This document shows, in pieces, positions 30,001 through 33,000 of a stretch of DNA of 64,000 nucleotides. The DNA lies in the NCBI RefSeq assembly GCF_988243305.1, contig NZ_OZ547136.1; one strand, given 5' to 3'. Position numbers: made by a program. Position 1 is the first letter of the stretch; every line of letters begins with the position of its first letter.

Positions 30001-33000
30001 ATCCTGGCTTCGCGCACCATCGCGCCGCTGTCGCAGATATCCGGCGTGCTCTCGCGCTGGCAGCAGGCGAAAGTGGCGCGCAACGGACTTGATGAACTGA
30101 TGAAGCGCCCGGTGGATCAGCCGGAACACGGCAAACTGGTGCATAAAGCGGTGCTACACGGCAATTATCAGTTCAGCAACGCTATCTTTTATTACGACGA
30201 AGAAGAGAAAATTGCCGATGTGGCGATTGGCAAACTCAACATTCAGGCCGGAGAGAAAATCGCCATTCTTGGGCGCAACGGCGCGGGTAAATCAACGCTA
30301 CTGCAAATGCTCGCCGGAATGCGTATCGCCCAGCAGGGGCAGGTGCTGCTGGAGAACATCAGCATCGGTCAGCTTGATCCGGCGGCTCTGCGCCGCGACA
30401 TGGGGCTACTCAGCCAGACCGGGCGACTATTTTTCGGTTCGCTGCGGGAAAACCTCACCATGGGGATGCCGGAGGCCAGCGATGAAGATATCGAACGCGC
30501 ATTAACACTCAGCGGGGCGCTGCCGTTTGTGCAGAAGCAGAAAAACGGCCTCAACTACATGATTCAGGAAGGGGGATTTGGCCTCTCTGGTGGTCAGCGG
30601 CAAACGCTGCTGCTGGCGCGGCTGCTCATCTCTCAACCCAATATCGTGCTGCTCGATGAACCCAGCGCCTCGCTGGACGAAATGGCGGAAGCGCATTTAA
30701 TCGAACAACTGAAACAGTGGATTGGCCATCGCACGCTGATTATCGCCACTCACCGCACGGCGATGCTGCAACTGGTGGACCGCATTATCGTGATGGATCA
30801 GGGGCGGATTGTGATGGATGGCGCGAAAGAGGCCATTTTGCGTGAACAGAGCGAACCCACGGCGCGACGGGTGGTGTTGCAGGAGAAGAATAAGGGGTCT
30901 GCCGCATGAACGGACAACTGCAATACAACCGTGGCCTGACTGAACCCCGCTTGCCGCGTTCGGCGCTGGCGGTACGCGTTACCGCTGTGATGCTGCTCTG
31001 TTTTCTCGGCTGGGCGTGGTACTTCCAGCTTGATGAAGTCACCACCGGCAGCGGCACGGTAGAACCCTCCGGGCGCGAACAGGTGGTGCAGTCGCTGGAA
31101 GGCGGAATTCTGTATCATCTCGACGTCAAGGTTGGCGATATTGTTGAACAGGGCCAGCCGCTGGCGCAGCTTAACCGCACCAAAACGGAATCCGACGTCC
31201 AGGAAGCAATGTCGCGGCTGTACGCGGCGCTGGCAACCTCGGCGCGGCTGCGGGCGGAAGTGAGTAATAAACCGCTGGTCTTCCCTGACGAACTGAATAA
31301 ATTCCCCGAACTTATCGAGTCGGAAACGGCGTTGTACAACACTCGCCGCGATGGGCTGAACAAAGCCACCACCGGGCTGACGCAGGGGATTAGCCTGGTC
31401 AACCGCGAACTGGCGATGACCCAGCCACTGGTCAAACAGGGGGCGGCGAGCAGCGTCGAAGTGCTGCGCCTGCAACGCCAGGCCAATGAACTGGAAAACA
31501 AACTCAGCGACGTGCGCACGCAATACTACGTACAGGCGCGGGAAGAGTTAGCGAAAGCCAATGCGGAAGTAGAAACCCAGCGTTCGGTGATCCGCGGGCG
31601 GGAAGATTCTCTCACCCGGCTCAACTTTACCGCGCCGGTACGTGGCATTGTTCAGGACATTGACGTCACCACGGTTGGCGGCGTTATTGCCCCCGGTGGT
31701 AAACTGATGACCATCGTGCCGCTGGATGAGCAACTGCTGATTGAGGCAAAAATCTCCCCGCGCGATGTGGCATTTATCCATCCGGGGCAAAAATCGCTGG
31801 TGAAAATAACCGCTTACGACTACTCCATCTACGGCGGCCTGCCGGGAGAAGTGGCGGTGATATCACCAGACACCGTGCAGGATGAAGTGCGGCGCGATGT
31901 TTATTACTATCGGGTGTACATTCGCACTTTCAGCAACCATCTGGAAAATAAACATAAACAGCAGTTTCCGATATTCCCCGGTATGGTGGCGACGGTCGAT
32001 ATCCGCACCGGCAAAAAAAGCGTGCTGGATTATCTGTTGAAACCCTTTAATAAAGCACAGGAGGCGTTGCGCGAACGATGAACATTAGCGATGTAGCAAA
32101 AATTACCGGCCTGACCAGCAAAGCCATTCGCTTCTATGAAGAGAAGGGGCTGGTGACGCCGCCGATGCGCAGCGAAAATGGTTATCGAACCTACACGCAG
32201 CAGCATCTCAACGAACTGACCTTACTGCGCCAGGCGCGCCAGGTGGGCTTTAACCTGGAAGAGAGCGGCGAACTGGTGAATCTGTTTAACGACCCACAGC
32301 GTCACAGCGCCGATGTAAAACGGCGCACGCTGGAGAAGGTAGCGGAGATCGAACGGCACATTGAGGAGCTGCAATCCATGCGCGACCAGCTACTGGCGCT
32401 GGCGAATGCCTGCCCTGGTGATGACAGCGCCGACTGCCCGATTATCGAAAATCTCTCCGGCTGCTGTCATCATCGGGCGGGGTGAAAATCAGTTAATCCC
32501 CGTTTGCACCGAAAGAATATGCTGCAAACTTTCTACCATAATGCGCCCCGACTGAAATAAGCCTTCCTGGATTTCGTTGTTAACATTCACAGCGTGAACC
32601 AGGGAGGCTAATAACACCACTTGCAAGAAGGCAAAAATAAACGCACCGATAATCATAATATGCGTCAGGGGGATTTTCCTTTGCTCCTTCATTTTAAATA
32701 ACCCACAAACTGACCTTCTTTCATTAAGGCGACTTTTCCTGTGTGATGATAAACAATGACGTTATACAGACCTGACTGATAAACAGTGGCATCTTTATTG
32801 TCTTCATCAATTGCACATAATGAATCATTGAGATAAGCAAAGTTTTTACTGCTCATTCTAAAGGTCATGCCAAATCCTTTATAAATGGCTTTCTTTGCCG
32901 CCTGGGCATGTTGTGCGGCTTCTGCATTTTTAAATGCCTGCGCTTCGGATGCACTTAAAATAGCCGTCTGACGCTGTTGTTCTGCGAGATAACAGGTGTC

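Follow-up and report, generated by a model that had tools for sequence, protein, structure and literature searches.

ATGA is the commonest kind of gene overlap, and classical cases of translational coupling through such stop/start overlaps are found in the trp operon. In this work, an ATGA overlap was analysed that joins cueR, the gene of a copper-responsive regulator, to the gene of a membrane fusion protein (MFP) at the end of a type I secretion system (T1SS) adhesin operon. The DNA under study is a 64,000-nt stretch of contig NZ_OZ547136.1 (assembly GCF_988243305.1), called the window throughout. The closest described operon is O-island 28 (OI-28) of Escherichia coli O157:H7 EDL933, with the genes tolC28 (z0608), rtxA28/rtxB28 (z0609/z0615), hlyB28 (z0634) and hlyD28 (z0635) (PMC12758282). 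Deletion of rstA in O157:H7 lowered the expression of each of the five OI-28 genes, hlyD28 among them, 3.25-4.85-fold; these genes also responded to Ca2+, and the secretion of the adhesin was dependent on hlyD28 (PMC12758282). The explanation favoured here, in which we place moderate confidence as a whole, combines an ancestral junction between such an operon and cueR with the likely co-transcription of the two.

The MFP-cueR junction

The features of the junction were as follows.

30906..32081, + strand: HlyD-family MFP (hlyD28-type), in its native setting the last gene of the T1SS operon (TIGR01843; contexts of orthologues)
32059..32064, + strand: AGGAGG, candidate Shine-Dalgarno (SD) sequence of cueR, within the MFP codons CAG GAG GCG (Gln-Glu-Ala)
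32078..32081, + strand: ATGA, the cueR start codon sharing bases with the MFP stop codon (sequence, open reading frame calls)
32078..32485, + strand: cueR, Cu(I)-responsive regulator of the MerR family (NF007590)

The open reading frames (ORFs) called for the MFP (391 aa) and for CueR (135 aa) overlapped by 4 nt. The junction reads ...GAA CGA TGA in the MFP frame and ATG AAC... in the cueR frame; TGA at 32079-32081 ends the MFP, and ATG at 32078-32080 starts cueR. An earlier note on this DNA had described this overlap and had placed a putative cueR SD sequence inside the MFP coding sequence; the ORFs and profile matches confirmed the former at 32078-32081, and the latter was found at 32059-32064, with 13 nt from the last G of AGGAGG to the A of the cueR ATG. 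The overlap is of the same-strand stop/start type (1 or 4 nt) by which coupled cistrons are recognised.

The identities of both genes were well supported. The MFP protein matched TIGR01843 (HlyD family T1SS adaptor) with 328 bits against a cutoff of 208.65 and was aligned to the profile end (422/422). CueR matched the NF007590 equivalog model with 308.6 bits (cutoff 244) over positions 1-135 of 135, and this full-length match was accompanied by a cognate operator in the copA promoter. Further, the CueR accession WP_001026747.1 was common to an annotated, 100%-identical genome and to a K-12-like genome, the proteins being identical.

Since ORF calling alone is no proof of the start codon used, it could be argued that the overlap is an illusion of annotation and that the true cueR start or MFP end lies elsewhere. 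This was judged hardly credible. The CueR model aligns over its whole length from this very ATG, and the MFP reaches the last profile position and agrees with 391-aa orthologues up to its last amino acid. Additionally, CueR was scanned in one genome per species, which gave 80 loci (75 of them outside Escherichia) with their neighbouring genes mapped, and the start position (ATG or GTG followed by AAT or AAC) was conserved in the 80 species.

The same conservation determines which part of the junction needs an explanation. A cueR start of ATGAAY or GTGAAY has a TGA in the +1 frame built in, so the overlap itself is trivial; less expected is that an MFP of native length terminates at exactly this point. 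Full-length MFP relatives in other genera, among the matches listed, were 391 aa long with 69-85% identity, and their genera included Enterobacter, Pseudocitrobacter, Enterobacillus, Lelliottia, Citrobacter and Kluyvera. Five orthologues read at the DNA level end in ...LKPFNKA[R/K]EALRER* with TAA or TAG stops. In the three genera examined in context (Enterobacter, Pseudocitrobacter and Enterobacillus), the MFP gene is terminal after the adhesin and ABC (ATP-binding cassette) genes; downstream of it lie non-coding DNA and unrelated genes, and cueR was absent there. In the Escherichia MFP, the last Arg codon CGA and the stop TGA together create the cueR ATG, and the codons CAG GAG (Gln-Glu, where the other orthologues have Arg/Lys-Glu) create AGGAGG. 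Thus, the precision of the fusion is notable and the overlap as such is not. A chimeric MFP C-terminus, produced by reading through into an old cueR leader, was considered and rejected, as the orthologues are of equal length and the last 14 residues are the same except for one R/K-to-Q change.

The candidate SD sequence sits within a 21-nt segment (32057-32077) that was invariant in all Escherichia loci examined, including a decayed remnant in E. albertii. A scan of the whole window with Rfam gave no match near the junction, and RNA folding around the SD sequence and the AUG was no better than that of shuffled sequences (z of +0.6, +0.9 and +0.4). A local RNA structure that shortens the 13-nt spacing or masks the start was dropped on account of these folds.

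K-12-type genomes and the origin of the junction

The earlier note had contrasted this arrangement with K-12, where cueR was taken to have its own intergenic promoter after ybaT. To describe the K-12 side, three further features are needed.

31982..32077, + strand: last 96 nt of the MFP gene, kept upstream of cueR in the sampled island-less E. coli
6194..31981, no strand: segment missing from K-12-type genomes through a deletion of 25,788 bp, the breakpoints being uncertain by 1 nt (pairwise alignments)
6176..6208, + strand: intrinsic-terminator-like hairpin after ybaT, with the stem at 6176-6198 (9 bp, 6 G-C) followed by CTTTGTCTTT (scan, RNA fold)

Positions 31400-32700 were used as a megablast query against 5426 complete E. 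coli genomes; coverage of 80% of the query or more can be reached only with an intact MFP-cueR segment. Matches were recorded in 5424 genomes and the intact form in 959 (~18% of the complete E. coli genomes). In the sampled island-less E. coli genomes, K-12-like included, the match began without exception (33/33) at query base 583, which is window position 31982 and lies 96 nt before the cueR ATG; hence, the last 96 nt of the MFP gene are retained before cueR. In the K-12-like genome, the annotation made by the Prokaryotic Genome Annotation Pipeline (PGAP) gives this stretch as a frameshifted, N-terminally truncated partial pseudogene that overlaps cueR by 4 nt.

By pairwise alignment, the 124-bp ybaT-cueR spacer of K-12 was composed of ~28 nt of ybaT 3' flank and the last 96 nt of the MFP gene, and a strict promoter scan found no consensus promoter in it. 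Because the spacer has this composition, the contrast drawn with K-12 fails. What lies upstream of K-12 cueR is a relic of a secretion gene rather than a native intergenic promoter, K-12 is a deletion derivative, and both genome types have the same DNA directly upstream of cueR. Between the window and K-12, the 96-nt relic contained 9 differences, including a 1-nt deletion in an A-run; one site differed in the 48 nt before the ATG and 8 of 48 in the next 48 nt, while 16 of 136 third-codon positions differed within cueR. The low divergence next to the ATG may be taken as a weak sign of constraint, which fits a conserved ribosome-binding region and identifies no promoter.

The opposite course of events was also considered, namely that a K-12-like chromosome received the T1SS island, which displaced a native intergenic promoter of cueR, so that this strain differs from K-12 in the DNA controlling cueR. 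The island is indeed absent from K-12, O-islands are conventionally described as acquisitions (PMC12758282), and the G+C content of the island (58-62%) is above that of its flanks. The proposal is refuted by the MFP relic upstream of K-12-type cueR, which is the frameshifted last 96 nt of the gene with the same ATGA. In addition, the left breakpoint cuts through the ybaT hairpin, as is expected of a deletion, and intact, decayed and deleted forms across Escherichia species share the junction. We therefore regard an insertion as very improbable.

The intact MFP-ATGA-cueR junction was also found in E. whittamii and Escherichia sp. E1V33, and the K-12-type deletion junction in the cryptic-clade Escherichia sp. 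MOD1-EC7003 (L005). The locus of E. coli SCPM-O-B-8794 (L006, positions 1-4000) contained a heavily decayed island with TolC-like and ABC fragments and no adhesin; its MFP is frameshifted near the end by a 2-nt insertion and the same cueR junction is retained, so that it represents an intermediate between the intact and the deleted forms. An independent island deletion was seen in E. albertii, where the ybaT hairpin and ~62 nt of the MFP are kept. Within this remnant, the 21 nt next to the ATG (ACAGGAGGCGTTGCGCGAACG) match E. coli exactly, and the rest is decayed. As all these forms share the junction, it is older than the divergence of the Escherichia species examined. We are highly confident, on comparative sequence grounds, in this structural and historical part, i.e. 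that the configuration is ancestral to Escherichia and not a strain-specific insertion. OI-28 likewise looks ancestral to Escherichia and repeatedly lost, and not newly acquired by enterohaemorrhagic E. coli (EHEC).

The state that preceded this configuration was sought in the other genera, for which the left part of the window is required.

1170..3674, - strand: copA, Cu(I)-exporting P-type ATPase and CueR target (NF007952 equivalog, 1748 bits)
3723..3741, no strand: CueR operator CCTTCCAGCAAGGGGAAGG in the copA promoter, kept across genera
3747..32077, + strand: Escherichia-specific block (glsA, ybaT, T1SS adhesin operon) from the copA promoter to the cueR ATG (spacer alignments with Salmonella, Citrobacter and Klebsiella; gene map of 80 species)
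3937..4869, + strand: glsA (NF009020 glutaminase A; K-12 annotation)
4872..6164, + strand: ybaT, permease of the APC family (K-12 annotation)

Outside Escherichia, copA and cueR were mostly divergent neighbours ~108 bp apart, and the spacer measured 94-115 nt in 46 of the 75 loci. In those genera, the CueR operator and the copA -35 element (…CCTTCCAGCAAGGGGAAGGTCAAG) end 8-9 nt (GGGGGAAAT) before the cueR start, and this short stretch carries a GGGGGA ribosome-binding site. In the window, the distance from copA to cueR was ~28.4 kb. The operator at 3723-3741 is the same as in the other genera, and homology with their copA-cueR spacer stops at 3746, after GGTCAAG (the copA -35 element, - strand). 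A regulator start within the shared promoter/operator spacer of its target, which defines a divergon, was thus found in most other genera and not in the window. Since the operator is shared, the homology ends at 3746 and only 8-9 nt remain beyond that point elsewhere, the block replaced just those 8-9 nt holding the old ribosome-binding site of cueR. The earlier claim that the native upstream region of cueR had been displaced was accordingly only half right. It is wrong with respect to K-12, as the same upstream DNA (the 66-nt junction 32030-32095 at 95% identity or above) was present in 5421 of the 5426 genomes, and it is right with respect to the other genera, the divergon spacer having been split in the Escherichia ancestor.

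The history was accordingly read as follows. In the ancestor, copA and cueR were divergent, and a mere ~10 nt separated the operator and the copA -35 element from the start of cueR. Then, in Escherichia, glsA-ybaT and an OI-28-type operon (TolC-like, SiiEA, ABC, MFP) came between them, the block directly adjoining cueR on its right side. Its MFP kept the native 391 aa, with CGA giving the A of the ATG and the TGA of ATGAAC as the stop. The original GGGGGA was lost, and the MFP codons CAG-GAG-GCG supply AGGAGG instead. The island-less E. coli sampled suffered a later 25.8-kb loss (6194..31981), which spared the last 96 nt of the MFP and destroyed the ybaT terminator, and E. albertii a separate loss that left ~62 nt.

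The copA-cueR spacer was apparently a site of recurrent rearrangement across Enterobacteriaceae, as 0.6 to >4 kb of DNA foreign to the spacer was seen in many Citrobacter, Kosakonia, Enterobacter and Klebsiella. The loci with copA and cueR separated were L010, L013, L014, L016, L017, L021-L023, L025-L028, L031, L032, L034, L037-L039, L043, L052 and L064.

On the other side of cueR, ~2.6 kb between cueR and ybbJ (32486-35094) had no counterpart in K-12, where these genes abut. This segment contained two small - strand ORFs without family matches (32489..32692 and 32689..33111), a YadA-like, trimeric-autotransporter-like ORF (33165..34181) with weak C-terminal matches to EmaA/Vomp, a 120-aa ORF (34548..34910) and an element of the naRNA4/REP (repetitive extragenic palindromic) type at 34968-35045 (-). 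At least the cueR-proximal ~215 bp were kept in some island-less strains (H8-H11), and the segment therefore varies independently of the T1SS island.

Transcription and translation of cueR

The genes located between ybaT and the MFP gene were the following.

6208..6221, + strand: RstA box TAATTCAAATTACC upstream of the TolC-like gene (exact match to the OI-28 box in PMC12758282)
6502..7857, + strand: TolC-family outer membrane protein (tolC28-type; TIGR01844, 416 bits)
7966..28743, + strand: giant BapA-related adhesin SiiEA, 6925 aa (NF047714, NF033510, TIGR03661)
28747..30909, + strand: LssB-type T1SS ABC permease/ATPase (TIGR03375, 832 bits)

The adhesin, named siiEA by PGAP in the 100%-identical genome, combines repeats of the Ca-tandemer and Ig-like types with a C-terminal T1SS target domain. 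It is separated from the ABC gene by 3 nt, and the ABC stop overlaps the MFP start in another ATGA (30906-30909). The MFP gene therefore stands in the context of a same-strand T1SS ABC exporter, a TolC-family outer membrane protein and a substrate with a T1SS C-terminal signal. The adhesin gene (8001-26000) was 58-62% G+C with a strong positive AT skew, as compared with 47-56% G+C in the flanks; this composition fits a repeat-rich foreign origin, although the island is old within Escherichia.

A strict scan of 30800-32700 for sigma-70 promoters and terminators found no + strand consensus promoter and no terminator. This supported the remaining claim of the earlier note, that there is no intergenic space and that cueR must be transcribed either from inside the operon or together with it. 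Because cueR is not set apart from the operon by a consensus promoter or terminator, its co-transcription as the sixth, distal cistron of the RstA/Ca2+-activated T1SS operon was judged to be the likeliest mode, and somewhat more probable than the opposite. The transcript would start in the promoter region upstream of the TolC-like gene, which has the RstA box (RstA/Ca2+-activated in O157:H7), and weak promoters inside the MFP gene might contribute. Translation of cueR would then proceed from the embedded, sub-optimally spaced SD sequence and/or by termination-reinitiation at AUGA.

Several points weigh against this account. A looser position-weight scan gave weak candidate promoters at 31675-31705, 31882-31910 and 31921-31949, all within the MFP gene. 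The need for some expression of cueR in all conditions argues for at least a weak constitutive promoter. E. albertii keeps the ybaT hairpin and presumably expresses cueR, which makes promoter activity near its remnant possible. A 26-kb transcript runs through a 20.8-kb gene, and little RNA may reach its distal end. The SD spacing of 13 nt is longer than optimal, so that the route of translation is uncertain. The paper on OI-28 makes no mention of cueR (PMC12758282). Furthermore, no cueR transcription start was found in a search of genome-wide papers on transcription starts and operons (PMC2760140, PMC3548332, PMC6131387, PMC4161252, PMC4681348), and no transcript-level evidence for cueR (transcription start, reverse transcription PCR or RNA sequencing) was found in the literature for either genome type. 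Finally, as regards the history, glsA-ybaT and the T1SS operon may have arrived jointly or sequentially.

The serious rival assigns most of the expression of cueR to a weak constitutive promoter of its own, located in the 3' portion of the MFP gene, adhesin read-through being negligible and CueR independent of the adhesin. CueR is needed before copper stress occurs, whereas adhesin operons are typically conditional. At least 62 nt of the MFP 3' end survived each of the two independent island losses (K-12 type and E. albertii), and the 48 nt before the ATG differ from K-12 at a single site, far less than the DNA further upstream. The strict scans of 30800-32700 (+ strand) and of the K-12 spacer speak against such a promoter. 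In favour of co-transcription, Escherichia is also without an equivalent of the clear TATAAT that was seen ~35 nt upstream of cueR in several Citrobacter and others with different DNA between copA and cueR. The loose candidates (31675, 31882 and 31921), which would favour it, all lie upstream of 31982 in DNA lost from K-12, none being conserved between island-positive and K-12-type DNA, so that they do not explain expression in K-12. In E. albertii, positions -22 to -62 are decayed and hence hold no conserved -10/-35 elements, and the ribosome-binding site alone explains the 21 conserved nt well enough. Expression mainly from an internal promoter was thus considered quite possible and yet short of probable. 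It should be added that co-transcription and a weak internal promoter are not mutually exclusive.

The upstream border of the T1SS operon was also compared between the two genome types. The RNA of the ybaT hairpin folded with -16.6 kcal/mol (z = -4.9) in the window, compared with -7.6 kcal/mol (z = +0.9) for its K-12 counterpart, which is at shuffle level; the 25.8-kb deletion cuts through the hairpin, and the 3' arm and the T-tract are gone in K-12. With the hairpin intact, glsA-ybaT is probably insulated from the T1SS operon in the window. With the terminator lost, K-12 cueR may receive read-through from glsA-ybaT, and transcription from ybaT into cueR is plausible there. A ybaS-ybaT-ybbI(cueR) operon has been predicted for K-12 (PMC1526738), which was the sole statement to this effect found in the literature. 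In MG1655, ybaST and cueR were induced in parallel by acid stress (PMC9628877). Positive autoregulation of CueR through glsA-ybaT in K-12 was entertained and toned down, as it is weakened by a review according to which the copper induction of ybaST is not directly CueR-associated (PMC10903455).

Inside ybaT, CTGGCGCTGGTTTTGCT at 5601-5617 had one mismatch to a sense-strand intragenic sigma-54 site of K-12, which was located by chromatin immunoprecipitation sequencing (ChIP-seq) 679 bp upstream of cueR (PMC4591121). This site could in principle feed cueR in K-12; in the window, the ybaT terminator and 26 kb intervene.

A broader proposal was considered tentatively and is doubtful at present: in island-positive E. 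coli, to which all O157:H7 belong, CueR synthesis would be set mainly by adhesin-operon read-through and termination-reinitiation, which would couple the preparedness for copper efflux to the programme of adhesion. By the K-12 deletion, cueR would have been placed under the transcript of glsA-ybaT, which is induced by acid and copper, giving two lineage-specific controls acting on one 96-nt relic.

If cueR is indeed carried on the OI-28 transcript, RstA and calcium would gain influence on copper sensing in O157:H7-type strains. Deletions of OI-28 or hlyD28 made in virulence studies could then disturb the ribosome-binding site and the expression of cueR, which would be a hidden confounder. Two points are corrected irrespective of transcription, namely the nature of the K-12 cueR leader and the assumed recent acquisition of OI-28 by EHEC; both clarifications are useful to researchers of copper homeostasis and of OI-28. 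No report was found in the literature searched of cueR as the last cistron of OI-28, of the K-12 leader as a relic of hlyD28, or of the loss of the ybaT terminator by deletion.

Other features of the window and comparison with known systems

Two observations were made away from the junction. A protein of 667 aa (43693..45696) begins with an Hcp/TssD domain (TIGR03344, residues 1-149) and is extended far beyond it at the C-terminal side, and its gene is followed by two ORFs without family matches (45623..46345 and 46352..47020). The region 43693-47020 looks like an Hcp-fused effector of a type VI secretion system with possible immunity genes; it lies between ybbP and mnmH, where an otherwise near-identical O169:H41 genome has only ~600 bp. 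Additionally, the enterobacterial small RNA STnc480 was matched by Rfam at 60043-60109 (+) with 84.9 bits against a gathering score of 72.

In comparison with known systems, the locus is another case of a well-known arrangement, from which a testable hypothesis on regulation arises, and is not a new kind of system. The nearest relative is OI-28 of O157:H7 EDL933, which has the same locus and gene order (TolC, giant adhesin, ABC, MFP) and an RstA box that is exact at 6208-6221; in the O157:H7 genomes among the matches listed (H5-H7), the MFP-cueR segment was full length with 96.2% identity. The two differ in that EDL933 has two RTX genes, whereas the adhesin of the window is a single 6925-aa ORF. 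Furthermore, OI-28 has been treated as an acquired island (PMC12758282), while the island studied here reads as ancestral in Escherichia, with cueR physically its last cistron.

The ybaT-cueR region of K-12 shares with the window the homologous 96 nt, including AGGAGG and ATGA, and an identical CueR. It differs by the lack of 6194..31981, by a frameshifted MFP remnant and by the destroyed ybaT terminator. The copA-cueR divergon of Salmonella, Citrobacter, Enterobacter, Klebsiella and relatives has both genes, the CueR operator and the cueR start position in common with the window. Its ~108-bp spacer holds GGGGGA beside the copA -35 element, whereas in the window the genes are 28.4 kb apart and MFP coding sequence lies upstream of cueR.

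Operons coupled through ATGA have the same 4-nt same-strand overlap and an SD sequence within the upstream gene. The present junction departs from them in its functionally unrelated partners, a secretion adaptor and a metal sensor, and in its 13-nt SD spacing, and coupling is a candidate mechanism here. Finally, the BapA/SiiE-type loci (Salmonella BapABCD and SPI-4 sii, and the orthologues in Enterobacter, Pseudocitrobacter and Enterobacillus) have the same adhesin-ABC-MFP order, the ATGA between ABC and MFP, and a 391-aa MFP ending in ...EALRER. In Enterobacter, Pseudocitrobacter and Enterobacillus, this MFP ends with TAA or TAG before non-coding DNA and unrelated genes, and it is only in Escherichia that cueR is fused to the end of the operon.

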